Virus record (IMG/VR): IMGVR_UViG_3300021437_000005
Direction: 5' to 3' (one strand)
Length of the DNA stretch: 43,727 bases
Origin: a virus
Shown here piece after piece: positions 1 through 37,086 of the stretch; position 1 is the first letter of the stretch, and each line of letters opens with the position of its first letter. Made by a program: the position numbers and the translations under genes. The notes beneath the pieces are model-generated. The model was not told the origin of the DNA. It saw only the letters and a program-made list of their open reading frames with translations, and did not search any database.

Positions 1-127
1 ATCATCAAAGAAGAAGTGACGAAGCAGCTTGAACGGGAGAAGGTCTCGCCATCGGCTATTGAGCAGCGCCCATCAGACTTTGAAGCCTTCTCGAAGGCCG
101 TAGACAAGCCTGCTGCACAGCCGGAAC
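1..127. repeat. Terminal overlap, identical to 43601-43727 (circular closure or assembly overlap)
   Basis: Base-by-base comparison of the first and last 127 nt shows no mismatch. Unique length is 43,600 bp. Confidence 0.95.
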
Positions 128-3100
128 AGGCGGTGACGGGGGGGACGGGTGGAGGACCAGAACAGGCCGTGGCTGGTGGGATCGCCAAAGAGCCATGGCA
201 GATGACGCGGGAAGAATTTAACGCTATAAAGGAACGGTATCGCTCTCTTTACCATCAATGGATAGATGCTGAGATAGCGTTAACTGATGCGCTTGAAGGT
301 GTAGGCCCTGGCCGCACCGGATTTGCACCAACTGCGAGTAAGGCTCAAGAAATTATTAATAATATACGAAAAAAACTTCCGAGTTGGGTCACGTTTGAAG
401 AAGGATTCGACTATGACGCCTACCTTAAAAAAGCGTTGGCGGCTGGTGAGCCTGTTCAGGTACCATCATCCTCGGAATTACCGCCTGTGACGGGTAATCA
501 AAGTCAATTCTATCACGGCTCTGGAACCGTTGGGCTGACTAAAGATCGGCTCAATCCAGACCTGACCAGGATCGAAGGACTCTTCGGGGAAGGTATCTAT
601 CTAACTGACAACCCGGAGATTGCGGCTGGTTATGCGAAGGTGCGTAGCACACGCACCAAGACGCCAGTGGTATACAACGCCCAAGTAGATCCAACGGCCA
701 AAATTCTCAACCTCGAAGAGCCCGTAATTCCGGAATTCGCTGGTACGTTAAAAAAAGCGGCTTTTAGTGTTGACCGTATGGCGGGATCTGATGAAGTTCT
801 GAAAGCTGTGAAAAAGGCTATAGCAACTCCAGGTTCGACCAATGAACAGGTATATGTAGCCTTCTCTAGGGCCATCGAAGAAGTTTCTCACGCTGAGCAA
901 ATACCGATAAGTGAACTTTCAGAGATATTCCAAATCCTGAGAGATGATCTCAAGGAATTCGGGTACGACGCACTTTCTTATACTGGGGGCAAACGAACAG
1001 GAAAGCTTCCACACCGGGCAGTGGTCGTCATTAATCCAGATATTATCACTCAGTTTGATCCGACCGTTAGTTCCGTTAAACCTCCCGTTGGCGTACAACC
1101 ACGCCTCCTTGATACGCAGGCCACGATGCCACCGACGCCGCTCCAGCCAAAGGCGCCGCAAGTGGAGCATGGGGAGTTGTTGGCAGGGATGCGACCGATT
1201 GAACCGCCTCCGCCGGAGTTGCCGTTCAGCGGCACCAAGGAGATGCGTGCTGGCCTGCCAGTACCCGAGACGGTCACACCAGCCGAGGTCTCTTTGGGAC
1301 GTTTCAGGACCTTTCTGGCCGAACAGCGAAAGAAATTACCGTCAGAATTACGGGTCTTGAGGGAGGCACCGAACTCGTCAGTGATGAGTGCTATTGATGG
1401 AGCGGCGGCGGATGTCACGAATGGTGCGGAGTCCATCGTGACCCAACCGTGGGCCAAAGCCTTGCAGCGCCGAACCCCGCAAGAGTTCCAACAGCTTGAA
1501 TCGCAGGCGGTTAGGACATGGGAGCAGGGAGGAAAGACCCCAGAGGCGATGGAACAAGCCATTTCCGCATTGCCACCAGATATACAAGAGATGGTTCGGT
1601 ATCGGGCCTCTCGGTTGCCGATTGAACAGGCAGCAAGACGCACGTTGGGACTCCCGGAGATCCCGGAGACGCCAGGACCATATTTTCCTCGGCTCAGCGA
1701 ACATGGCCTCCAGGACATTCAACGACTTGGGGCGGGTGGTCGTCTGGCCGGTGAACTCCAAACGACCCTCCGATCTTTTCAGCAGTCCCGTTCATTCCCA
1801 ACCATGGCAGAGGGACAGGCGCAGGGCATGATCTATGCGGATCCGCGCAAAGCCTGGGCGTTACGCGAATGGTACTCTCTGAAACTCGAAGCGACGGCCA
1901 AACTCATCACAAACCTTGAAGACAAGGGCGTACTCTTTCGGACCGCTGAGGCGGCAAAGGCCGCATCGCCGACCGGCAAAGCGTTCGGCATCGAAGGACT
2001 CCCAGGGTCTCCCGAATGGTTTGCCTCCACGTCGGCTGAGCGAGAGTTCATCTTGCAGAATCTCTCTAGGGCCAACCGTGGGGCGTTGGGGTCCGCGATT
2101 ACGCTTGGTAATCAGATTTTCCGCAATCCCAACCTGTTTAACCCCTTTCCACACTTCACCAAGAACATGCTCTATAAGTTTGGATTGAGCGGAGGCAGTC
2201 CAACAAAAGTCGTCCCGGCGATGCTTGAATATGAACGCGGCTCTTCGCCAATGGTAGCGCGGTTCAAGCAGGTGTTCCCAGCCGCCGATACCGCGCAATC
2301 CGCTGGTCAACTCTTCGATCCCTTTCTGAACCCAACTGGCGTCACCCATAAAGTGCTTCGCGCCGTTGGCGAGATCAATAAACCGAGCAGCACGGCGATC
2401 TTTGCCCATCTCGACCCGGCCCTGCGATATGCCCGATGGAAACAGTACATCGCCAAAGGGATGACCGATCAGGAAGCCGCGAATCATGTACAAGTGGATT
2501 TGATTCGCTATGGGACCAGGTCTGATGCCGTGGATTTCTGGAAATCAATCCCACTGAATTTCTTTGTGCCATGGCGCACCGGTACGGTGACAAGTGTGGT
2601 AAAGCAAATGACATCTCACCCGCTTCGTGCGGCGGCACTGATAGCCGGGATTGATTACCTGCGAGAGGCGAGATACCGGCAGAGTGGACGGTGGACCCAT
2701 CTGCCGATTGACTACTTGGAGTCCCCGATCGCCCAAGTGGTCGCGCATCCCACGCCGAAAACGGCTGCTGCCATCGCGGCGACCACGATTGCCTTCGGAC
2801 CCGGTGGGGCCTCAACAGCCTCGACGCTGCGAGATGCGATTGACGACATCCGTGGCGGGGATGAATGGGGGCGGATACGCAATATGTTCTGGGGAATCTC
2901 GCAGCTCTATGAAATCCCAAAGGAATGGCAAGCGTTTGAAAAGACCGGTGACAGCAGCCACTTAGTCAACATCCTCAGTTCGTCGCTTGTGGCCGAACAT
3001 TCGGCGTTGAACTATTCGCCAAGGAGACTTGCCGCGTATCTCCCAGAATATCTCCCAGGGATGCAGAAGAGTGAACTCGTTCAAGCCGCTGAGGCATTAC

Positions 3101-3195
3101 AGACCCAGCAGCAACGCCGAGGCGAGGCCATAAGAGCCCGACAGGCGCTCCGTCCGGCGCGGACCATTGAGGAGAAATTACAAATAGCCCCATAA
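1..3195 (+). CDS. C-terminal part of the same giant protein (1,589 aa in total) carrying an ART-like domain
   Basis: Continues the 42026 frame and ends at TAA 3193-3195. Motifs FYHGSG, GIYLTDNPEIAAGYA and GYDALSYTGG...AVVVINPDII are present. It sits after the internal-virion genes and before the lysis genes. Confidence 0.8.
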   Translation: MIKEEVTKQLEREKVSPSAIEQRPSDFEAFSKAVDKPAAQPEQAVTGGTGGGPEQAVAGGIAKEPWQMTREEFNAIKERYRSLYHQWIDAEIALTDALEGVGPGRTGFAPTASKAQEIINNIRKKLPSWVTFEEGFDYDAYLKKALAAGEPVQVPSSSELPPVTGNQSQFYHGSGTVGLTKDRLNPDLTRIEGLFGEGIYLTDNPEIAAGYAKVRSTRTKTPVVYNAQVDPTAKILNLEEPVIPEFAGTLKKAAFSVDRMAGSDEVLKAVKKAIATPGSTNEQVYVAFSRAIEEVSHAEQIPISELSEIFQILRDDLKEFGYDALSYTGGKRTGKLPHRAVVVINPDIITQFDPTVSSVKPPVGVQPRLLDTQATMPPTPLQPKAPQVEHGELLAGMRPIEPPPPELPFSGTKEMRAGLPVPETVTPAEVSLGRFRTFLAEQRKKLPSELRVLREAPNSSVMSAIDGAAADVTNGAESIVTQPWAKALQRRTPQEFQQLESQAVRTWEQGGKTPEAMEQAISALPPDIQEMVRYRASRLPIEQAARRTLGLPEIPETPGPYFPRLSEHGLQDIQRLGAGGRLAGELQTTLRSFQQSRSFPTMAEGQAQGMIYADPRKAWALREWYSLKLEATAKLITNLEDKGVLFRTAEAAKAASPTGKAFGIEGLPGSPEWFASTSAEREFILQNLSRANRGALGSAITLGNQIFRNPNLFNPFPHFTKNMLYKFGLSGGSPTKVVPAMLEYERGSSPMVARFKQVFPAADTAQSAGQLFDPFLNPTGVTHKVLRAVGEINKPSSTAIFAHLDPALRYARWKQYIAKGMTDQEAANHVQVDLIRYGTRSDAVDFWKSIPLNFFVPWRTGTVTSVVKQMTSHPLRAAALIAGIDYLREARYRQSGRWTHLPIDYLESPIAQVVAHPTPKTAAAIAATTIAFGPGGASTASTLRDAIDDIRGGDEWGRIRNMFWGISQLYEIPKEWQAFEKTGDSSHLVNILSSSLVAEHSALNYSPRRLAAYLPEYLPGMQKSELVQAAEALQTQQQRRGEAIRARQALRPARTIEEKLQIAP

Positions 3196-3204
3196 GGAGA
3201 TCCC

Positions 3205-3447
3205 GTGACCGACCACGATCTTGACACCTGCCCGCTCGCCCCTGAAATCCAACGATGCGACCGTGAACGCGGCGTGATTATGGCGACGCTCACCTCGATC
3301 AGTGCGACCTTGGCACGCCTGGAGCCGATGATCCAGGCGCACGAAAACAACATGAATCGACAAATCGGGTATCAAGGGTTGATTGGGGTGATCTCAGGGA
3401 TGATCGGGGCGCTCATCGGGTTTGTGGCGTCACGGCTCTGGCGATGA
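3205..3447 (+). CDS. Small C-terminally anchored membrane protein, lysis accessory candidate (holin/antiholin-like)
   Basis: GTG start 5 nt after AGGAG. 80 aa with a single hydrophobic helix LIGVISGMIGALIGFVASRLW at the C-terminus. Directly upstream of the endolysin. Confidence 0.55.
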   Translation: MTDHDLDTCPLAPEIQRCDRERGVIMATLTSISATLARLEPMIQAHENNMNRQIGYQGLIGVISGMIGALIGFVASRLWR

Positions 3448-3561
3448 CCGCCTACCCACCCGTCAGCCGTGAGCATCCCTGCGACGTGAAGACGTGTACT
3501 CCGCTGAAGAAGCCAGTATGGCCGCTGCCGTGTGCCACCTGTCAGCCGATAAAGGAGGCCG

Positions 3562-4068
3562 ATGCCACTTGATCCGAAATCAGAAACGATGTTGCTGAAG
3601 GTCCATCCCGGCCTCGCTCGCCGTGTGCGGGCGCTCTTGATGGCCTGCGAAGCGAAGGGCTGTCCGATGCGCGTCACACAGGGGCTGCGGGATGGGATGG
3701 AACAGACGGCGTTGTATGCGCAAGGACGACAGGGGCTTGATGAGGTCAACCGCCTACGGAAGTTGGCGTGTCTCCCACCCATTACCAGTGAGCAGAATCA
3801 ATGTCCCGTCACGGATGCGCGGCTTGGGTTTAGCTACCACAACTACGGCTTGGCGATTGATCTGTGCTACGCGACAGGCGATCCCTACCACGAAGACGGG
3901 CATAGTCTGACCTGGGAGCAGATCGGGGCGATGATCGAGGCGAATGGATTGGTCTGGGGTGGTCGGTTCAGAATGCGCCCAGACCGTCCACATTGCCAGT
4001 GGTCAGACGGCGTGTCGTTAGCGGATCTACGAGCGGGCAAGGTGCCGCCGATGGAAGCCACGCCATGA
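3562..4068 (+). CDS. Endolysin, peptidase M15 (VanY-like / L-Ala-D-Glu peptidase type)
   Basis: AAAGGAGG RBS. Zinc-ligand motifs SYHNYGLAID (H-x6-D) and DRPHCQW. Confidence 0.85.
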   Translation: MPLDPKSETMLLKVHPGLARRVRALLMACEAKGCPMRVTQGLRDGMEQTALYAQGRQGLDEVNRLRKLACLPPITSEQNQCPVTDARLGFSYHNYGLAIDLCYATGDPYHEDGHSLTWEQIGAMIEANGLVWGGRFRMRPDRPHCQWSDGVSLADLRAGKVPPMEATP

Positions 4069-4841
4069 AAACGATATACCTGATTGGTATAGGATTTTCC
4101 CTCCTCATCCTCGCCGGCTGTGGTGGCGGCCACGTCAGCCACCCCACACCCCCGATCAGCGAGATCGGGATGAACTTGACCATCGACGACCTGATTAACC
4201 GCGTGGATGGACCACAACGGGCGGCCACGTACCTGGATGAGATTGAGAAGGCGGGCTACCGCAAGTCGGTCCGCATGGTCTATGACCGCTCCTGGGGGCC
4301 GAAGTTGTCTACGTGGCTACCTGATCTATTGCGACGCAAGGGGTTTCAATTACTTGCTATCCTCAGCCCCGGCAAGCACGTGGACGGGATGGTACTCATC
4401 GACGCCGACCGTCAGTGGTTCCAAACTGGACTCCCGCCGATTGTGGACATCCTGGAAGGGGTCGAGTTTGCCAACGAACAATGGAACTCGGTTGGGCGTG
4501 GGGACAACTACATCTTCCCGCCGGCGGACTTCGCGGCCTGGCATAATGCGCTTCTGCCAGTTGTGCGACAGATCGCCCCTCTTGTGACGATTGCCGAGGG
4601 CGACATTGGAGGTGGTGGCGGTGACGACTGGTGGAACCAGGTGCGGGCAGTCGGTATCACCAATGTCGGGGCGCTCTCGGAACACCTGTACGGCCATAGT
4701 CTCACATCATCAGACCTGCCGATCTGGATCACGGAAGCGGGATCCGTGGCGGATTGTTACCCGACCCTGCCATGCTGGTTGTACACGTGGAATGAGGCTT
4801 CGAAGTGGGCGAAGCGGCCTGGCGGCGGAATTTTGCCCTGA
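4065..4841 (+). CDS. Lipoprotein with clan GH-A (TIM-barrel) glycoside hydrolase signature
   Basis: ATG overlaps the endolysin stop (ATGA). MKTIYLIGIGFSLLILAGC is a signal peptide plus lipobox. FANEQW (Asn-Glu), EHLY (His-x-Tyr) and IWITEAG (Glu nucleophile) occur in the canonical order. Confidence 0.75.
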   Translation: MKTIYLIGIGFSLLILAGCGGGHVSHPTPPISEIGMNLTIDDLINRVDGPQRAATYLDEIEKAGYRKSVRMVYDRSWGPKLSTWLPDLLRRKGFQLLAILSPGKHVDGMVLIDADRQWFQTGLPPIVDILEGVEFANEQWNSVGRGDNYIFPPADFAAWHNALLPVVRQIAPLVTIAEGDIGGGGGDDWWNQVRAVGITNVGALSEHLYGHSLTSSDLPIWITEAGSVADCYPTLPCWLYTWNEASKWAKRPGGGILP

Positions 4842-4899: not shown

Positions 4900-5079
4900 A
4901 TGGGAGGTACGATACTGTTACTGGCACGCGATCAGAGGATGGCTGAGCCGATGGCTGGCGAGCTAGACGGGTATACGCTGCTCCACATCCTGGGCGTGGG
5001 TGGCGTGACGGCAATAGCGTTGGGTATTGTATACGGGATTGTCAACATGATTGAGTGGATTGTCAACGGAAGGGGGTGA
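4900..5079 (+). CDS. Small membrane protein (one TM); start uncertain (ATG 4900, 4939 or 4951)
   Basis: Hydrophobic helix LLHILGVGGVTAIALGIVYGIV. Lies between the lipoprotein and the 2-TM gene. No clear RBS. Confidence 0.45.
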   Translation: MGGTILLLARDQRMAEPMAGELDGYTLLHILGVGGVTAIALGIVYGIVNMIEWIVNGRG

Positions 5080-5083
5080 TAAC

Positions 5084-5266
5084 ATGAACTTCAAAAGCTT
5101 GCAACCGATCCTCGTCACCGTGGTAGTGGGCCTGATCGGCGCCTTTACGCCGCAGGTGACGGCGTGGGTGTCCGCACATCCCGATACAGCGGTGACGCTG
5201 GGGACGATCGTCGCGGCGGTCCTGCACGCCTTGCAGTCGCCGGTCAACACGACCACACCGTCCTAA
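5084..5266 (+). CDS. Two-TM small membrane protein, holin candidate
   Basis: GGAAGGGGG RBS then ATG 5084. 60 aa with two hydrophobic segments, ILVTVVVGLIGAF and VTLGTIVAAVLHAL. Confidence 0.6.
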   Translation: MNFKSLQPILVTVVVGLIGAFTPQVTAWVSAHPDTAVTLGTIVAAVLHALQSPVNTTTPS

Positions 5267-5378: not shown

Positions 5379-5819
5379 GTGGCTAGTTTAAACACAAAAT
5401 TTAATAGCATAAAACAGGACTGGGAAACTCCATTAGAATTATTCAACCCTCTCAATGCTGAATTTAACTTTACATTAGATGTTTGCGCGACCTCCGCAAA
5501 CGCTAAGGTTTCGACATTTTATTCAGAGCATGATAATGGACTAACAAAAAACTGGAGCGGTACATGCTGGATGAACCCGCCATTTAACCAAGTCGGTAGA
5601 TGGGTTCAAAAAGCCTATTCTGAGAGCTTGAAAGGTGCAACGGTTGTATGTTTGTTGCCTTCTCGAACAAACACAAACTGGTGGCACGATTACTGTTTAA
5701 AGGGACAAATTCGATTTATTAGAGGGCGACCACGTTTTAATGGTGCAACACATGGCCTTCCACAGCCACTAAGTATCGTTATATTTAATCCATATTTTAA
5801 GGGAGCACAACATGATTGA
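5379..5819 (+). CDS. Phage Dam-family N6-adenine DNA methyltransferase
   Basis: DWETPLELF, FTLDVCAT, NPPF (motif IV) and LLPSRTNTNWWH. The segment is visibly AT-richer than its flanks. Confidence 0.85.
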   Translation: MASLNTKFNSIKQDWETPLELFNPLNAEFNFTLDVCATSANAKVSTFYSEHDNGLTKNWSGTCWMNPPFNQVGRWVQKAYSESLKGATVVCLLPSRTNTNWWHDYCLKGQIRFIRGRPRFNGATHGLPQPLSIVIFNPYFKGAQHD

Positions 5820-6141
5820 TCTTGCAGCAATGGGCGCCTTGATGCCCGCGATCACGGCGGGGCTCGAACTCGCCAACGCGGGAGTGAAGAAAGTGCAAGC
5901 GGCGGGGGAATTGAACGTGTATACGGATCGGGCGAAGGCGTTTGCGGACCTGTTCGACGCGGATCTGGAAGTCAAACAGGCCGCCTATGCTACCATTTTC
6001 TCCGACATCCAGATGCTCTGCGCCAAGCATGGCATCACGCCAAGCGCCCCCTATTGGGATGAGGCCAAGCAGCAGGGGAGTCCATGCTTGAGCATCCCGA
6101 TAGCGACGCTGATGGCGCTCATGGATTGTGCGAGCCGATGA
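5812..6141 (+). CDS. Hypothetical protein (weak i-spanin-like candidate)
   Basis: GGAG RBS, 8-nt overlap with the methylase gene. 109 aa with mildly hydrophobic ends and a helical middle. Confidence 0.55.
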   Translation: MIDLAAMGALMPAITAGLELANAGVKKVQAAGELNVYTDRAKAFADLFDADLEVKQAAYATIFSDIQMLCAKHGITPSAPYWDEAKQQGSPCLSIPIATLMALMDCASR

Positions 6142-6149
6142 GGAGTGCG

Positions 6150-6281
6150 ATGAGTAAGGCAATCGCGATAATCGGGATCAGTTTCATGGTCGCCTCATGC
6201 GTTCACAAGCCACCCGCGCTCACGATGCCCCATGTCCCGACGGTCACGACGGATCAGCGTCCGGGGGCCTTAACGAGATAG
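6150..6281 (+). CDS. 43-aa Pro-rich lipoprotein (o-spanin-like or Cor/Llp-like exclusion candidate)
   Basis: GAGGAG RBS. MSKAIAIIGISFMVASC has a lipobox V-A-S-C. The mature part is Pro/Thr-rich. Confidence 0.55.
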   Translation: MSKAIAIIGISFMVASCVHKPPALTMPHVPTVTTDQRPGALTR

Positions 6282-7016: not shown

Positions 7017-7289
7017 TCACCACATCTCCATCTGCTTCGCCTCTGTTGCCTCTCGTGCCGCTCGTTGCGCCTCTTTTCGCCGTGTCGTTACCCACTTCAC
7101 CACATCCTCGCGGATCAGTTCGTCGGTCGTCGGAATATAGTAATACTCACGCCCTCCATACGTGCAGCCGCCGTAATGCCGGGCGATGCTCAACTGCGAC
7201 TGGCTCACGCCACCGATCACGTAGGGCGTGAACGGATCGAGCCCGCTCGATTGCACGGCGTCAAGTTCGTCGGTGGTCAAGAACGACAT
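7017..7289 (-). CDS. Hypothetical protein, possible HTH
   Basis: AGGAG RBS 8 nt before ATG 7289. 90 aa. The segment GVSQSQLSIARHYGG looks HTH-like. N-terminus MSFLTTDELDAV resembles that of the next gene. Confidence 0.6.
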   Translation of the reverse strand: MSFLTTDELDAVQSSGLDPFTPYVIGGVSQSQLSIARHYGGCTYGGREYYYIPTTDELIREDVVKWVTTRRKEAQRAAREATEAKQMEMW

Positions 7290-7312
7290 CGTTCGCACTC
7301 CTGGCAGTCTTT

Positions 7313-7921
7313 TTATGGTTGGCTAGAGGTTAGTAGTTCCACATGATTTAACGCCTCGTTGCCCCATGTTGCCCAGCCGAGCCTATTGCGGCGGGCGAAA
7401 AGTTCCAAATATGGGCCTGGACTCACTGATTCCACCATATCTATGAAGGCTTCGGGTTTCGCAGAGTGTCGTCCTCGTTTCCAATTCCACCATGTTGACG
7501 GCTCTCGGCGGAGCGGTCGAAGGCCACCACGATGTCCGAAAATGACGTGCTCGGTTGTGATTCCGAAAGCGTCACCGAGCCCAATGCCGATTGGATTCTT
7601 TGCCCATGTCAGCAGTACAGATGGCTTGAAGCCCCACGCTTCGACAACTTCGTATGCCGGTCGAACTAGAATATTGGTTGTCCAGAGGTATAAGTGCGCG
7701 GCCTCGTCTGCGAGTTCTCCGACTGGTAGGGCTTTGATTTCCGCTATCGTCATTGTCGGATATTTGAGCTTCAAATGTCCACTGCCGCCATATCCGAACC
7801 CTGCTGGCCCGGTTGTGGTTCGCCACGGTGGGTCAGCTACGATAGTCTTGAACTTTAACTGTGCCCGCAAATCACCGGATGCAGCGATGGCACCAAGTTC
7901 GTCGTCGGTCAAGTAGCTCAT
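7313..7921 (-). CDS. MT-A70 family N6-adenine DNA methyltransferase
   Basis: ADPPW, YPTM, LYLWTTN, HSAKP and ELFARR..GWATWGNE. ATG 7921 overlaps the upstream stop (ATGA). Confidence 0.85.
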   Translation of the reverse strand: MSYLTDDELGAIAASGDLRAQLKFKTIVADPPWRTTTGPAGFGYGGSGHLKLKYPTMTIAEIKALPVGELADEAAHLYLWTTNILVRPAYEVVEAWGFKPSVLLTWAKNPIGIGLGDAFGITTEHVIFGHRGGLRPLRREPSTWWNWKRGRHSAKPEAFIDMVESVSPGPYLELFARRNRLGWATWGNEALNHVELLTSSQP

Positions 7922-8322
7922 TTCGCTCCATCCACCGCCAGCCAGTAGATGAGCCGAAACGGTTCCGCTCGCAGCATCTCCCGTGACGCTTTGCATCCCT
8001 GTCGAGCTCGCTTCATCAGTGCCGCCTGTTGGACCTGCCGGTCGGCGGGGTCGTCACAGGGGAAATACGCATGATGCTGCGAGGGGCGCGTCGGGCTTGG
8101 CGCGGACTCCCGCATGGCTTCGACGTTGTGTCGGTCTGGTAGTCGCCCCTTCGCTCGTTCCGCCACAAACCGTTGCCAGTCCTCCGCCTTGACCATGTAG
8201 GTCCACTGTTGTCGGCCCTTGCGGGCCTTCTGCGCCGGGAGTCTACCGGCCCATATCCATTTGCGGATACTATGCGATACCACGCCGATTTGTTGCGCAC
8301 ACTCCTGGACGGTCAGGGTCAT
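7918..8322 (-). CDS. Excisionase/MerR-type HTH DNA-binding protein
   Basis: AGGAGG RBS. N-terminus LTVQECAQQIGVVSHSIRKWIWAGRLPA. Confidence 0.7.
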   Translation of the reverse strand: MTLTVQECAQQIGVVSHSIRKWIWAGRLPAQKARKGRQQWTYMVKAEDWQRFVAERAKGRLPDRHNVEAMRESAPSPTRPSQHHAYFPCDDPADRQVQQAALMKRARQGCKASREMLRAEPFRLIYWLAVDGAK

Positions 8323-10259: not shown

Positions 10260-10520
10260 TCAGTCCTCCACCATCCCGAAGTCCTGCGAGACGGGGATAT
10301 GTGAGATGGGCGTCAACCGCATCTGCTGCATTGCCAACGTGATCCCATAGCCCACGCCGGCCAAGTAGACCGTCAACCCGATCTCCTCGCCGATGTGCGC
10401 GGTGATGCCTGGATGCTCCTCTAGCCAGCGGAGGAAGTGGGCGCGGGCTTCATGGAGGGTGAGTGGGTCCTCGCAGTGTTCCTGCTGTGGGAGTAATTGT
10501 AGGCTCAGGCCATCAGTCAC
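10260..10520 (-). CDS. Hypothetical protein
   Basis: GGAGGTGAACC then GTG start. 86 aa within the operon. Confidence 0.55.
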   Translation of the reverse strand: MTDGLSLQLLPQQEHCEDPLTLHEARAHFLRWLEEHPGITAHIGEEIGLTVYLAGVGYGITLAMQQMRLTPISHIPVSQDFGMVED

Positions 10521-11310
10521 GGTTCACCTCCAATCCGGTTCGTGCATACCAAAACGATAAGAGCGCCTCAAACATGCGCCAGCCGCGTTGTAAGTCCGCT
10601 TCTTCGCACTGCATCACCTTCGCGGCCCGATTGAGCGTGGACACGAAGATGATGCCGCAAGCGGCGTGAGGCAGACCCAACCCCTGCCGATAGGCCGACA
10701 ACTGCATAAAATGTGAGTCATAGAGCTTCATGTCGGCCAGCGGCTTGTCGGTGGTCTTGATGTCCATAACGAGCCCAGTCCACGAATCCCGCCAGTAGGG
10801 ATCGTGCAAGTCTACCTTCCCGCCGAAGCGGTCAGTAGCAAACGATTGCTCGACTCGCCACGGGACTTCTCCAAGATATTCTGCCTTCAACGCTGCTTGC
10901 ACGGCATCGTAATACTCGATCCCCAACGGCGTCACATCGTCCATCCGTCCCTCGAACGCTGCCTGTATCCAGGCGTGGATCTGCGTGCCGCGTTCTGCCG
11001 CCTTCCGTGCCGTCTCCTTCGCGTCGGCTTTGATCCGCTCCACCCACACGTCCTCTGACTCTCCCTCAATGCGAGGGAGCGTGAGTGCGGACAGCAGCAC
11101 TTGATTCTCTTTCCAGTTATTCAATCCTGGGGCGTTCGCTTCGTTAGTAACCGTCGTCACGCTTGGCAGTAAACCAAGCTGCCGTGCATCTCGAAGCGTG
11201 GTGGGGCGCTCGGTTCCATTTTTGCCCTTCACGGTGTAGGCCGGTTCGCCTGTGCGGGTATACCAATGGCCAGCGGCGGATACGTAGGGGGTCGTGATAA
11301 GCTCAGCCAT
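10513..11310 (-). CDS. PD-(D/E)xK recombination exonuclease (YqaJ/Cas4-like)
   Basis: VDLHD, MDIKT (D-x-K) and QLSAYR motifs. Start overlaps the recT stop (TGATG). This is the classic RecT partner position. Confidence 0.7.
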   Translation of the reverse strand: MAELITTPYVSAAGHWYTRTGEPAYTVKGKNGTERPTTLRDARQLGLLPSVTTVTNEANAPGLNNWKENQVLLSALTLPRIEGESEDVWVERIKADAKETARKAAERGTQIHAWIQAAFEGRMDDVTPLGIEYYDAVQAALKAEYLGEVPWRVEQSFATDRFGGKVDLHDPYWRDSWTGLVMDIKTTDKPLADMKLYDSHFMQLSAYRQGLGLPHAACGIIFVSTLNRAAKVMQCEEADLQRGWRMFEALLSFWYARTGLEVNRD

Positions 11311-12230
11311 CACGCATCCATCCCCGGCTCATAGCCTTGCGCCGCGTCTGCATCGTACCCGCCTACCACTTCCATGTCCGTCACCGTCAGAAATTGGCCA
11401 TTCTGTTTGTAGTGCAGGACCACCGACTGACCCGCCCGCTCACGGGCGCCCTCCCCTATTATCTTGTCAAACGTGCCGTAGGTCTGGCCGTTCATCACGA
11501 TGCCGTAGCGCGTCCACGGTTTACCCTTCGTGCTCCCTTCCTTGACCAGCACGTCCACGATCACGCCCTCGACGGTCTGGACATCCTCGTCAGCAGCGGT
11601 GGTCTGAGGTGCGGGGCGCGTAACGGGTTCGTTCGCGGCTTGTGTGGCGGCTGGTGCCTGCTGTGTAGCAGGGATCTCCACCACTTCACCCGTCTGCATG
11701 TCCACCACCGCGCCCATTTCATCGGGATCGTAGACCCCGCTCAGGATGTCGGGTGCGATCGCCTTGAGCCCGTTGCTGGCCGCTCGCCAGCGCAACATGA
11801 TCTTTGGGTATGTCGTCCAGTTGCCGCCCTTCTTGAGCAGTCCAGCACGGTCCGCATCGGCCAGCGTAAACGTCTCGGTGTGCGTATCGCCGTTGGGATG
11901 AGTGAGGGTGATGGTGGCGTGACTCTCATCAGAAGCCACCCATTGCGCCCGCCCGCCGCGCTGCTTGAACAACGCGAGCTGGAGTTCGGCGGCGAGACAC
12001 GGCTTGCCCTGGATCACATTGATGAGCCGGAGCGATTTCATGGGCGGCAAGCCCAGCTCTTGGCCGGTGAGGATGATGGCCACAGCTTGCGCGGGGGTCT
12101 TGATCGCGGTGGGGAGAAAGCCGGTGGTGACCAACTCCTTCGCCAGCGCCATCAAGGTGCGATAGTCGTGGTGCTGCTGGATAACTTTCGGTTCGTGTGG
12201 GGTTGGTAGTGCTGATTCGCTACTCATCAT
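11310..12230 (-). CDS. recT: RecT-family single-strand annealing protein with C-terminal OB-like extension
   Basis: KTPAQAVAIILTGQELGLPPMKSLRLINVIQGKPCLAAEL and the WTTYPKIMLRWRA core. A further ~110 aa follow the core. Confidence 0.85.
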   Translation of the reverse strand: MMSSESALPTPHEPKVIQQHHDYRTLMALAKELVTTGFLPTAIKTPAQAVAIILTGQELGLPPMKSLRLINVIQGKPCLAAELQLALFKQRGGRAQWVASDESHATITLTHPNGDTHTETFTLADADRAGLLKKGGNWTTYPKIMLRWRAASNGLKAIAPDILSGVYDPDEMGAVVDMQTGEVVEIPATQQAPAATQAANEPVTRPAPQTTAADEDVQTVEGVIVDVLVKEGSTKGKPWTRYGIVMNGQTYGTFDKIIGEGARERAGQSVVLHYKQNGQFLTVTDMEVVGGYDADAAQGYEPGMDA

Positions 12231-33370: not shown

Positions 33371-34933
33371 ATGCCGACGAATCGTAAGATTCTTCCACTG
33401 CCCTTCAAGGGAGGATGGTCCACCTCGCTCGGTCCACAAGCCTCCGACTTAACGCATTTCCTCGCCGCCGAGAATGTGTACTACGAACTCGATGGCGGCT
33501 TTCGAAAGATTCCCGGCGCCGTCGCTATGAATAGTACGCCCCTGACGGAATCCGGCACCGCAATTACGATCAATACGCTCTTCGATTATTGGAAAAGTGG
33601 TACGGCAGGCAGTGCGGTCCAGAAGCGGATGGCGTATGCCGGCACGCAGCTCTGGAAGGAAGACCTCGACGGGACCTGGGATTCGATCAAGACCGGGCTC
33701 GAAGCCAATAAGCACGGGTGGTTCACGCAGTATAACGATCTGTGTATCTGGTCCTCGACGTCCAATACGGATGTCCCACAGAAATGGAATCAAACCGATG
33801 CCACCACCAGTGCCCTCGGTGGCACGCCTCCCAACTTTGCCTTCTGCATCCCTCATCGAGGGCGCTTGTGGGCTGCTGGGGTGGCCTCGAATCCCTCACG
33901 ACTGTACTACTCGGCCCTCGATAATCCTGAAGATTGGGTTGGGGCAGGGAGTGGTTCCATCGACATTGATATCAGTGACGGGGATGATATTGTGGGGATC
34001 GCCTCGCATAAGCAACAATTGTGGGTCTTCAAGGGACCCAACCGTGGCAGTATCAGTTATATCTCCGGGTCCTCACCAACTGGGAGCGACGCCTTTGCTA
34101 GGGTTCCGTTTTCCCGTGGCGTGCCCTGTGCCGCGCAACAAAGCATCCTGACGTACATGAACGACCTGGCGTGGATATCCACTCGCGGCGTGCATTCCCT
34201 TGAAGCCACTCAGGAATTCGGCAATATGAAGGAAGGCTTTTTGTCCTTCCCCATTCAGAAGGTCTTCCTGCAGGAATCAGAGATCACGCTTGACGTGAGT
34301 GCGCTTGCGAGTAGCTACGGGGTCAACCACAGTCAGCGCGGGGTGTTACTCTGGTCGGTACGTCAAACCGGGCAAGCCCAGAACAACCTCGTCCTGTCGT
34401 ATGACTATCGGTTCAGGCCGGGTCGCTGGTCGCTCCTGACTGCCTACAAGTCGGCGTCGCTGGCCGTGATCTTGCACAACAGTCAGCCTCGATTGTTCAG
34501 TGGGGGCTATGATGGCAGAGCGCTGCGCCACGATGAGGTCAACCGGAATATCAATGGCACGTCCTATACCGGGAAGGTCAGGTTTCCCTTCCTCCATTAT
34601 GGGTCCCCGGATATCATGAAACAGACCGCGTGGGTGCGGTTTGGCATTCAACCGCAAGGCACGAGTAGCCTCACCCTTGAATGGCAGAACGATGAAGATG
34701 CGGTGCAATCCACGACCGTTTCGCAATCGAGTGGGGCCGTGTTGGGTGGGGCAACCGGATTCACACTCGACACTGATGTCCTTGGGGGCGGCGCATACTT
34801 GCAGCGGTACTTTAACCCGCCAGGCTCGTATCGCGTGCAACAACTCACTCTGTCACAACCAGGGAATAACGACGATATGGAAATTCACGAAATGGCCGTG
34901 CAGGTTGAAGGCGCTGGATTGTCGGAGGTCTAA
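33371..34933 (+). CDS. Tail tubular B / nozzle-like candidate
   Basis: 520 aa with beta-rich repeats. Lies directly upstream of the tail fibres. The function is inferred from position only. Confidence 0.5.
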   Translation: MPTNRKILPLPFKGGWSTSLGPQASDLTHFLAAENVYYELDGGFRKIPGAVAMNSTPLTESGTAITINTLFDYWKSGTAGSAVQKRMAYAGTQLWKEDLDGTWDSIKTGLEANKHGWFTQYNDLCIWSSTSNTDVPQKWNQTDATTSALGGTPPNFAFCIPHRGRLWAAGVASNPSRLYYSALDNPEDWVGAGSGSIDIDISDGDDIVGIASHKQQLWVFKGPNRGSISYISGSSPTGSDAFARVPFSRGVPCAAQQSILTYMNDLAWISTRGVHSLEATQEFGNMKEGFLSFPIQKVFLQESEITLDVSALASSYGVNHSQRGVLLWSVRQTGQAQNNLVLSYDYRFRPGRWSLLTAYKSASLAVILHNSQPRLFSGGYDGRALRHDEVNRNINGTSYTGKVRFPFLHYGSPDIMKQTAWVRFGIQPQGTSSLTLEWQNDEDAVQSTTVSQSSGAVLGGATGFTLDTDVLGGGAYLQRYFNPPGSYRVQQLTLSQPGNNDDMEIHEMAVQVEGAGLSEV

Positions 34934-35832: not shown

Positions 35833-37086
35833 ATGGCCCTGTCACGCTTGACAGTCTGGTCCGCGGGCAACGTCCTCACCGCGACCGCGCTCAACGCGGA
35901 GTTCGATAATCTGGTCGCTGGAATCGTGACTAGTGGGGGAGTCTTACCAGTCACCTATGCGATTGGCGATCTCCTGACGGCCAACTCCACGACGACCATG
36001 ACCACACTCGCTGACGTAGCGGTTGGTTCGTATTTGCGATCTGGTGGCGTGGGCGCAACTCCGCTATGGTCTACGCTCTTGCTCCCCAATGCCGCCACAA
36101 CGGGTGATCTCCCGTATGCCTCATCCACCAATACCGTCAGTATGCTCGCTGATGTCGCCACCGGCAACGCCTTGCTCTCTGGTGGCGTCGGAGTGGCGCC
36201 CAGCTATGGCAAGATCGGGCTGACCACACATATCACCGGCACTCTCGCGGAAGCCAACGGCGGGACGGGCCTGACCAGTCTATTCGGGACGGCCAATACA
36301 TGGACTGCGAACCAAACGATCTCTAATACCGCCCCCTCACTCGCGTTCACCGACACCACGGCGAGCGCGAAGTCCTTGACTGTGGCCGTCGATGCGAATC
36401 TCGCGCAGTTGCGAGAATCGGCAGGCGCGAGCGGGAGTCTGCTAGTGCTGGACTTGGCGAATAATATAGTCGGCATCGGGACGGGGAGTCCGGGAGCGTT
36501 GCTGCACCTCAACGCTGGTGCCAACAACGGTGTCCGACTGGACAACGGCACGGTCAAGGTCATCTTGTACAACACGGGCAACAATTCCGGGTCGATCGGG
36601 ACCGTATCGAACCATCCAATGCTGATGTTTACGAACAATGCTGAAAGGATGCGGATCGACTCATCCGGCAATGTCGGCATCGGCATGACCCCCACCGTCC
36701 AGCTCGAACTCTCCGGCTCAGTCGGCCAGAAAGCCAGTGGGACCACATGGAGCAACCCGTCGGATGCACGGCTCAAAGACAACGTGCAGGACTATACAGA
36801 CGGTCTGGCGGTGCTTCGGAAGGTGCGACCCGTGCGCTATGAACTCAACGGCTTAGCGGGTACACCGAAGGGACAGCGGGGCATCAGCATAATTGCTCAA
36901 GAAATGCTCGACGTCATGCCCTACACGATTGAGACGTACAAGGCGAAGCTGTATCCAGAGGATGTCAAAGAGACGGAACTGTATCGGTTCGAGGCTAGTG
37001 CGCTGACGTTCGCGCTGGTCAACGCGGTGAAGGAATTGGCGGCGAGAGTCGAGGCGATGGAGCATGGAAAACCTGGCGTCCAATAA
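35833..37086 (+). CDS. Tail fibre protein 2 with C-terminal intramolecular chaperone (peptidase S74-like) domain
   Basis: Same N-terminal anchor as tail fibre 1. SDARLKDNV at 36760 begins the S74-type domain. Confidence 0.8.
   Translation: MALSRLTVWSAGNVLTATALNAEFDNLVAGIVTSGGVLPVTYAIGDLLTANSTTTMTTLADVAVGSYLRSGGVGATPLWSTLLLPNAATTGDLPYASSTNTVSMLADVATGNALLSGGVGVAPSYGKIGLTTHITGTLAEANGGTGLTSLFGTANTWTANQTISNTAPSLAFTDTTASAKSLTVAVDANLAQLRESAGASGSLLVLDLANNIVGIGTGSPGALLHLNAGANNGVRLDNGTVKVILYNTGNNSGSIGTVSNHPMLMFTNNAERMRIDSSGNVGIGMTPTVQLELSGSVGQKASGTTWSNPSDARLKDNVQDYTDGLAVLRKVRPVRYELNGLAGTPKGQRGISIIAQEMLDVMPYTIETYKAKLYPEDVKETELYRFEASALTFALVNAVKELAARVEAMEHGKPGVQ
35857..35912. repeat. Second copy of the 56-nt tail-fibre anchor repeat
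   Basis: Identical to 34957-35012. Confidence 0.9.

Follow-up and report, generated by a model that had tools for sequence, protein, structure and literature searches.

Lysis of Gram-negative hosts by phages has been described with three actors, namely a holin, an endolysin, and a spanin or disruptin. Membrane-tethered, periplasm-facing glycan hydrolases are known from the hosts themselves: PslG (GH39), a membrane-anchored member of glycoside hydrolase clan A (clan GH-A), PgaB, with its GH153 domain, and the Mlt lipoproteins. These host enzymes are found in biosynthesis or export operons, and none of them is known from a phage lysis cassette. Among the lysis proteins discussed here, LysB is not known to be a lipoprotein. 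O-spanins are encoded by lipobox-bearing lysis-cassette genes and exported before holin triggering (PMC6139136), and disruptin gp28 of phiKT represents a spanin-independent solution to the outer membrane (10.1101/515445). LysB, the mycolyl-arabinogalactan esterase of mycobacteriophages, is encoded beside the endolysin and completes lysis by attacking an envelope layer other than peptidoglycan (PMC5707550). In corynephages and mycobacteriophages, the lysis cassette encodes a membrane protein, LysZ, which is required to overcome a barrier of membrane-anchored glycopolymer (lipomannan/lipoarabinomannan) once murein has been degraded (10.1101/2025.06.24.661397). Here, we analyzed a viral DNA of 43,727 nucleotides (IMG/VR record IMGVR_UViG_3300021437_000005; this whole stretch is called the window), in which a gene at positions 4065-4841 encodes a predicted lipoprotein that is probably an active, divergent retaining glycosidase of clan GH-A, by its predicted structure and motifs, and that belongs to a conserved lysis cassette. 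An original prediction, made from the letters of the DNA, knew of no described equivalent, and the literature on lipoprotein or glycoside-hydrolase components of lysis cassettes likewise yielded none.

Compared with LysB, the likeness is one of genomic logic only, a second enzyme beside the endolysin. LysB is an esterase (PMC5707550), whereas the predicted fold of the window protein is a glycosidase-type barrel. The two also differ in their settings: LysB acts on the mycomembrane linkage of Mycobacteriales, while the cassettes of the window family point to Gram-negative hosts. LysZ provides a precedent for envelope glycans that block lysis, but it is a helical, apparently non-enzymatic, single-pass protein of actinophages, in contrast to a predicted hydrolase with a lipid anchor. 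With the spanins (lambda Rz/Rz1) the locus shares a lipobox gene in the lysis cassette; the mature domain of Rz1, however, has 40 amino acids (aa), is Pro-rich without detectable secondary structure, and works with an i-spanin partner, whereas the window protein is a 240-aa globular domain with no adjacent i-spanin. No sequence relationship of the window family to PslG, PgaB or Mlt was detected here. The barrel and the layout of catalytic residues resemble those of retaining clan GH-A glycosidases (the 4/7 superfamily), the nearest being Glyco_hydro_cc, GH5 Cellulase, GH53, GH39 and GH79. What sets the window family apart from these is a trimmed barrel, a lipoprotein anchor, an invariant RPGGGILP tail, and its occurrence only in phage-like contigs, inside lysis cassettes.

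The gene and the parts of its product are as follows.

4065..4841, + strand: predicted lipoprotein glycosidase gene; 258-aa precursor, mature protein of 240 aa and 26.3 kDa
4065..4121, + strand: predicted lipoprotein signal peptide MKTIYLIGIGFSLLILAGC, with basic n-region, hydrophobic core and lipobox LAGC ending at Cys19 (codon 4119-4121)
4122..4166, + strand: Gly/Pro-rich tether of 15 residues, from the predicted lipidated Cys to the first barrel strand (Cys compared with domain start in 30+ members)
4272..4274, + strand: Arg70 in strand 2, invariant (31/31)
4467..4484, + strand: FANEQW, aa 135-140, with Asn137-Glu138 after strand 4; Glu138 (codon 4476-4478) is the predicted acid/base
4680..4691, + strand: EHLY, aa 206-209, with His207 (29/31) and Tyr209 (19/31) on strand 6
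4722..4742, + strand: IWITEAG, aa 220-226, with Glu224 (codon 4734-4736) at the end of strand 7; predicted nucleophile, 31/31
4812..4838, + strand: C-terminal tail KRPGGGILP, predicted to be disordered

Much of this had been read from the sequence before, and it stands: the gene starts on the stop of an M15 endolysin gene (ATGA at 4065-4068, the ATG at 4065-4067 overlapping the TGA at 4066-4068), its product carries a lipobox LILAGC (aa 14-19, nt 4104-4121) and then FANEQW, EHLY and IWITEAG in this order and at these places, and the mature protein is indeed of about 26 kDa. The LAGC of the lipobox matches the consensus [LVI][ASTVI][GAS]C (PMC6139136), and by its n-region, h-region and lipobox the product qualifies as a predicted bacterial lipoprotein. 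The residue at +2 after Cys19 is Gly, so that there is no Asp retention signal. Of 22 close homologues, 19 have the lipobox Cys and three are truncated gene calls; in a wider alignment, 23 of the 31 members have it. The tether measures about 15-20 residues in most family members, and the structural model has low confidence at residues 18-22.

This model, built with AlphaFold2 from 22 homologues (predicted local distance difference test, pLDDT, 84; predicted template modelling score, pTM, 0.81), contains eight strands (34-37, 68-72, 95-101, 130-136, 175-181, 203-208, 220-225 and 237-240) with helices after strands 1-5 only, that is, a trimmed (beta/alpha)8 barrel. The C-terminal tail has a pLDDT below 50. 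In the model, H207 and E224 lie within strands 6 and 7, and the Asn-Glu (NE) pair and W242 come after strands 4 and 8, respectively. Together with an Arg, such an Asn-Glu/His/Glu/Trp set is canonical for clan GH-A, as in GH5-type enzymes. When the model was compared with the PDB by Foldseek, the best 50 of 66 matches at E<=1e-3 all belonged to clan GH-A, with E down to 6e-7; among those listed were GH79 beta-glucuronidase and heparanase, GH5 mannanases, GH30, GH39, GH53, GH10 and GH1. In the viral structures of BFVD, the top matches were phage GH5-type hydrolases.

On its own, the protein had no match in Pfam (E<=1), PHROGs, NCBIfam or, by phmmer, the PDB sequences. A profile of the family found weak matches among PDB sequences, to GH-A families only (GH79 and GH39 at E ~0.02-0.1), and a second profile matched GH53 (0.004, the best), GH5, GH17 and GH128, with NE and TE aligned to the catalytic motifs. 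The nearest Pfam family by sequence is Glyco_hydro_cc (PF11790; GH128 in CAZy); 6 of 31 members matched it, the best with E=0.007, below the gathering threshold. A profile search of 1.84 billion representative proteins reached a few longer proteins that pass the Pfam thresholds for Cellulase (GH5) or Glyco_hydro_cc, and hhalign aligned both catalytic motifs of the family with those of a GH5-like protein (probability 98%, E 2e-13) and of a Glyco_hydro_cc (GH128-like) protein (96%, 7e-9). Glu138 and Asn137 (31/31 and 30/31) align with the GNE(P) of GH79, GH53, GH5-like and GH128-like proteins, and Glu224 with the (A/T)E nucleophile motif of the GH53, GH5-like and GH128-like ones. One remote relative, the 927-aa protein P0052, joins a GH5-like domain homologous to the family (hhalign probability 98%) to two PG_binding_1 domains, a fusion which suggests that the nearest cellular or viral relatives act at the cell wall.

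Residue conservation leads to the same assignment. Across the 31 sequences of the wider alignment, which share 24-72% identity with the window protein, the sole invariant columns are R70, E138 and E224, while N137, H207 and W242 are nearly invariant; among the 22 close homologues N137, E138, H207, E224 and W242 are all invariant. Such conservation argues against a chance occurrence of the catalytic motifs. Since the model, its structural neighbours, the profile searches and conservation form four independent lines that agree, we assign the protein to clan GH-A. The clan GH-A signature proposed originally is thus borne out by ordered motifs, a predicted barrel, GH-A structural neighbours and two invariant Glu residues. 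In the sequence families searched here the protein has no home, and it represents a small candidate new family within the clan. A further pair of residues, C231 and C237, occurs together in 18 of the 22 close homologues, which fits a disulfide-bonded enzyme in the oxidising periplasm. R251, P252 and G253 of the tail are present in 22 of 22 close homologues and mostly retained in the wider alignment.

The family is rare. We found 21 homologues in 5.8 billion clustered proteins; the 1.84 billion representatives gave 45 matches, some 30 of them genuine family members. One contig in IMG/VR carries the gene, and a scan of metagenome contigs with the alignment of close homologues returned 600 pattern stretches and no relative. 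Among 185,579 species genomes there was one carrier, a 4.5-kb contig binned to a 'Betaproteobacteria' metagenome-assembled genome, a label which comes from this one short binned contig only.

In the window, the gene directly follows virion genes and lies in a chain of coupled open reading frames (ORFs), with gaps of -4, -11, -4, +58 and +4 nt among the first six genes of the cassette. Its surroundings comprise the following features.

3205..3447, + strand: 80-aa protein with one C-terminal transmembrane (TM) segment, holin/antiholin-like, opening the cassette; locus L015 has a close homologue of it upstream of its glycosidase gene
3444..3572, + strand: 42-aa Cys4 protein (HPCDVKTC...PLPCATC), overlapping the upstream TM protein gene and the endolysin gene
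3562..4068, + strand: M15 peptidase endolysin (VanY / L-Ala-D-Glu peptidase type) without signal peptide, assigned by Pfam and PHROG
4951..5079, + strand: peptide of about 42 aa with a single TM segment; 4900 is a possible alternative start of the ORF
5084..5266, + strand: 60-aa protein with two TM segments, class II holin-like, kept in L008, L009, L011, L012 and L016
5379..5819, + strand: Dam N6-adenine methyltransferase (Pfam Dam 2e-29; GC content 0.40, GC at third codon positions, GC3, 0.33)
5812..6141, + strand: 109-aa helical protein without convincing TM segment, conserved with the glycosidase gene
6138..6281, + strand: small Pro-rich predicted lipoprotein, 43-47 aa, with VASC lipobox and mature sequence CVHKPPALTMPHVPTVTTDQRPGALTR; o-spanin-like candidate, ATGA-coupled to the 109-aa gene

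The endolysin matches Peptidase_M15_4 (8e-11), VanY (2e-8) and a PHROG endolysin family (8e-22), and its closest cultured relatives are annotated as L-alanyl-D-glutamate peptidases or endolysins. We recovered flanking sequence for homologues across the whole family, from 15 distinct loci, one of which (L019) was too short to judge. In 11 of the 14 loci with usable flanks, two of which (L013 and L014) carry the same glycosidase protein, an endolysin gene lies on the same strand within 0-2.4 kb, and in 10 of them within ~0.5 kb or less. These partner endolysins belong to six unrelated families.

M15: in the window, overlapping and upstream of the glycosidase gene; in L015, 95 nt downstream
GH24 lysozyme: in L008, upstream with a 44-aa TM peptide between; in L010, downstream with a 43-aa TM peptide between
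Hydrolase_2: in L005, L009 and L011, upstream
SLT with N-terminal hydrophobic segment: in L001 and L002-4, upstream
PHROG-669 endolysin (phrog_669): in L014, upstream
GH108: in L006, 2.4 kb upstream

The window, L008 and L009 (~70% identity) have an otherwise common cassette with three different endolysins, a pattern of classical endolysin swapping around a retained glycosidase gene. The most distant members (24% identity), in L012 and L016, lie on short contigs without a recognisable endolysin, where the gene directly follows two-TM holin-like ORFs and directly precedes a homologue of the 109-aa gene. Because linkage, our main new evidence, recurs with six unrelated endolysin families, the gene is a conserved member of the lysis cassette and not a moron, and its original placement there stands. 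Every homologue context was phage-like, with no cellular polysaccharide locus among them, so that homologues consistently outside lysis contexts, which would have spoken against a lysis role, did not appear in the recovered loci.

The gene might nevertheless be a moron or passenger, or the protein an inactive TIM-barrel lipoprotein with a structural or other non-hydrolytic role, given that it passes the threshold of no family and that lysis-cassette ends are common insertion sites, as the Dam gene illustrates. With a GC content of 0.59 and a GC3 of 0.71, however, the gene resembles its neighbours in composition, and no promoter- or terminator-like site was found on the + strand between 2800 and 6700, so that it has neither of its own; on composition and operon structure we rejected a moron. 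An inactive barrel is at odds with the restriction of invariant residues to the catalytic triad of the clan and with retention of the gene across endolysin swaps. We regard this explanation as a whole as very improbable. The Dam gene itself appears to be foreign, a recent insertion that splits the lysis cassette; an HNH endonuclease gene occupies its slot in L008.

A second possibility is that the protein is another peptidoglycan glycosidase, exported by Sec, of a new fold class, and restrained by its short lipid tether until the endolysin disorganises the sacculus. Host outer-membrane-anchored lytic transglycosylases (MltA-E) and signal-anchor-release (SAR) endolysins would be its analogues. 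Proximity of the gene to endolysins and the PG_binding_1 domains of P0052 are in line with this idea, and the (beta/alpha)5-beta3 layout recalls GH25, with some 'lysozyme' models in BFVD matching weakly (E ~1e-3). A GH25-like lysozyme was nonetheless rejected, as it had no sequence support and the BFVD lysozyme matches were ~100-fold weaker than the best GH5-type match. The protein has no Pfam, PHROG or NCBIfam match to lysin families, and Foldseek ranks GH-A structures far above lysozymes. We know of no clan GH-A family of murein hydrolases. In clan GH-A, by textbook chemistry, a free 2-OH of the sugar is the usual contact of the Asn that precedes the acid/base Glu; the murein sugars GlcNAc and MurNAc are without this group, which suggests a non-murein substrate. 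A murein glycosidase would also be redundant beside GH24, GH108 and SLT endolysins, with which the gene occurs as readily as with peptidases. Since the partner endolysins comprise peptidases, muramidases and transglycosylases, the enzyme fills no single peptidoglycan-bond gap, a further argument for a non-murein substrate. Taken together, we consider a tethered murein glycosidase quite unlikely.

The original prediction had further placed the protein in the o-spanin slot, instead of the usual small Pro-rich lipoprotein. This part finds no support, because the window does encode such a lipoprotein, overlooked originally, at 6138-6281, a distance of 1.3 kb downstream. When both strands of the window were scanned for strict lipoboxes, two ORFs only came up, this one and the glycosidase. 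The small lipoprotein is conserved with the glycosidase gene in at least five loci; it is paired with the 109-aa protein also in L008, L009, L011 and L016, and L012 has a 105-aa homologue of the latter right after the glycosidase gene. By its size the glycosidase does not resemble an o-spanin, as its mature domain is a 240-aa, confidently predicted globular barrel, and its neighbours are the M15 endolysin and the ~42-aa TM peptide rather than an i-spanin, of which none was recognised in the window. A reading of the 109-aa/47-aa pair (5812-6281) as canonical i- and o-spanins was also weighed and rejected, given that the 109-aa family lacks a consistent TM segment and its N-termini in L008 and L009 are charged and amphipathic. 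From its sequence, the pair looks like a spanin pair minus the i-spanin-type membrane anchor. No canonical i-/o-spanin pair was recognisable in the window clade by our detection, a crude script rather than a curated search. In other clades (L006, L010, L012), the place immediately upstream of the glycosidase gene is taken by small lipoproteins of other kinds. L001 has two i-spanin-like ORFs with TM and coiled-coil segments (7238-7573 and 7684-8079) directly after the glycosidase gene, with no small lipoprotein nearby.

These observations bear on the idea that the glycosidase is a functional substitute for, or partner in, the outer-membrane (spanin) step, for instance by cutting a glycan with a tethering or stiffening effect on the outer membrane. 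The apparent lack of a canonical spanin pair in the window clade and the arrangement in L001 count for it, as does the absence of Asp at +2 in every member, and docking might be the task of the invariant C-terminal tail, which is predicted to be disordered. Also in its favor, spanins are missing from about 15% of the phages that infect Gram-negative hosts, and disruptin is a known non-spanin solution (10.1101/515445). The conserved, separate small lipoprotein speaks against it, and so does the crudeness of the spanin detection. Where the anchor is a TM segment, or the signal peptide an ordinary one, a member cannot be a lipoprotein of the outer membrane, and an obligatory spanin-like role at the outer membrane is therefore hard to reconcile with the family. 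A periplasmic enzyme that is usually tethered fits these anchor variants better than a spanin-like mechanical role. We thus judge involvement in the spanin step unlikely.

The KRPGGGILP tail of the glycosidase resembles the C-termini of the small lipoprotein family (in the window, 6255-6278), which read RPGALTR, KPGAVTR, PPGVVTR and RPGTISH; at the level of sequence, this likeness could reflect a shared docking motif or coincidence.

The enzyme might also clear matrix or destroy receptors, trimming nascent capsule, exopolysaccharide or O-antigen, and be merely co-expressed with late genes; progeny would then not be trapped on debris, or superinfection would be reduced. Lipoproteins that protect progeny or exclude superinfection, such as Llp of T5, set an example. 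The closest viral structural neighbours of the protein are phage GH5-type depolymerases, and the tail fibre of the window (35833-37086) carries a Peptidase_S74 chaperone, as is typical of polysaccharide-binding fibres. Yet the linkage of the gene is tight, and repeatedly re-assorted, to endolysin and holin-like genes and not to tail fibres, its translation is coupled to that of the endolysin, and a periplasm-facing anchor does not reach surface polymers. Its presence in both integrase-bearing and integrase-less phages is a further point against such a role, which we hold to be rather improbable.

We favor the reading of an accessory lytic glycosidase whose substrate would be an envelope glycan other than peptidoglycan, and we give it an even chance. 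The gene would be part of the late lysis transcript, with its translation coupled to that of the endolysin gene. Its precursor would be exported by Sec, independent of the holin and before the holin fires, lipidated on Cys19 and freed of its signal peptide. Since Asp is absent at +2, the lipoprotein would then probably end up in the inner leaflet of the outer membrane, where the 15-residue tether would keep the compact (beta/alpha)8 barrel near the membrane. The barrel would be active as a retaining glycosidase, Glu138 serving as acid/base and Glu224 as nucleophile, and would cut a beta-linked non-murein glycan in the periplasmic or membrane-proximal space. This cleavage could remove a barrier or tether that survives the destruction of murein by the holin-released endolysin. 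A Gram-negative host is suggested by the single-domain endolysins of 139-218 aa, the hydrophobic N-termini of the SLT endolysins and the small Pro-rich lipoproteins. In a more far-reaching version, the protein would stand for lysis proteins of a new class: glycosidases on a lipid anchor that, together with the small lipoproteins and peptides encoded in the cassette, take apart an envelope glycan which bears load or tethers the outer membrane, and that thereby take over the spanin step; this we regard as unlikely.

Outer polysaccharide, lipopolysaccharide or S-layer glycan had been proposed originally as substrates, but it is not obvious how a lipoprotein that faces the periplasm would reach lipopolysaccharide sugars or an S-layer. 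Several points weigh against an accessory lytic glycosidase. To our knowledge, no periplasmic glycan needs to be cleaved for lysis in model Gram-negative bacteria. A barrel without helices after strands 6-8 is unusual for clan GH-A, and membership of the clan rests on predicted structure together with sub-threshold or transitive sequence links, no Pfam glycoside hydrolase model passing its cut-off. Nor is the anchor universal: while most members have a lipobox, P0027 and P0031 carry an N-terminal TM segment, P0034 and P0041 an ordinary (signal peptidase I-like) signal peptide, and one member has no signal. L018 is uninformative in context; its member lacks a signal peptide and has an N-terminal extension. 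L013 lacks a recognised endolysin, with an unannotated 173-aa gene on the minus strand at the position of the L014 endolysin, and the endolysin of L006 is a distant one. Synteny among related phages could also stem in part from common descent rather than function. Finally, tblastn against 50,697 GenBank phages found no family member, and no cultured phage or genome with the family was found.

Other genes of these cassettes deserve mention. A single-pass membrane peptide of ~40 aa lies directly beside the glycosidase gene, upstream or downstream, in most loci (L008 7309-7443; L009 1194-1328; L010 10696-10827; L001 6126-6248; L002 8923-9045; L014 2697-2828); the copies of the window, L008 and L009 are clearly homologous, and the peptide may be a partner or regulator. 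The Cys4 motif is kept in L009 (543-770) and L010 (9279-9470), and the protein may be a small zinc-ribbon lysis regulator. Homologues of the 109-aa protein had no PHROG match, and the 109-aa/lipoprotein pair had none in GenBank phages. Lysis regions of L006, L010 and L015 are unusually rich in exported proteins and lipoproteins: a secreted protein of 246-294 aa with the metallopeptidase signature HELGH is encoded in L006 (2550-3434) and L010 (8578-9318), and L006 (3450-3845), L010 (11640-12035) and L015 (2122-2514) encode a helical lipoprotein of 130 aa with a 68-95-aa protein after it; none of the three protein types has a PHROG match. The hydrophobic N-terminal segments of the SLT endolysins of L001 (5468-6124) and L002 (7169-7810) have a SAR look.

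The window as a whole is an apparently complete, podovirus-like, circularly permuted phage genome of ~43.7 kb, with 43,741-43,749 bp across several independent assemblies. A tRNA search of the window found none; it is without an integrase and has a RecT/exonuclease pair on the minus strand (10513-12230). TerL and portal share 22-28% identity with those of any cultured phage, and the hosts of those phages are unrelated. At the end of the virion module, a 1059-aa protein (16-3195, + strand) has weak, sub-threshold matches to domains of the ADP-ribosyltransferase (ART) type at residues 160-230 (DUF3990, ART-PolyVal, PARP; E 0.01-0.2); it may belong to the internal virion proteins that are ejected, and carry an ART domain. 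In the virion block, a 520-aa protein (33371-34933, + strand) matches PHROG 5107 'amidase' (2e-22) as well as virion and internal-virion PHROGs, and may be a virion-associated cell-wall hydrolase for entry.

The gene is carried by one uncultured phage and a handful of relatives, and what is new about it is a membrane-anchored predicted glycosidase that is kept while the endolysin is swapped among six families. Its small size (26 kDa) favors expression and work with glycan panels. Two cases are known in which a phage deals with a further envelope layer, LysB for the mycomembrane and LysZ for lipoglycans, and both come from actinophages. If our reading is true, phages with cassettes of the Gram-negative style would have in the window protein their first candidate for an enzymatic accessory lysin of this type, and its presence would hint at a glycan barrier, so far overlooked, in the envelope of the host and at an extra step in lysis. 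Were it to constitute a new class of lysis protein, an envelope component would come to light whose resistance to lysis had not been recognised.

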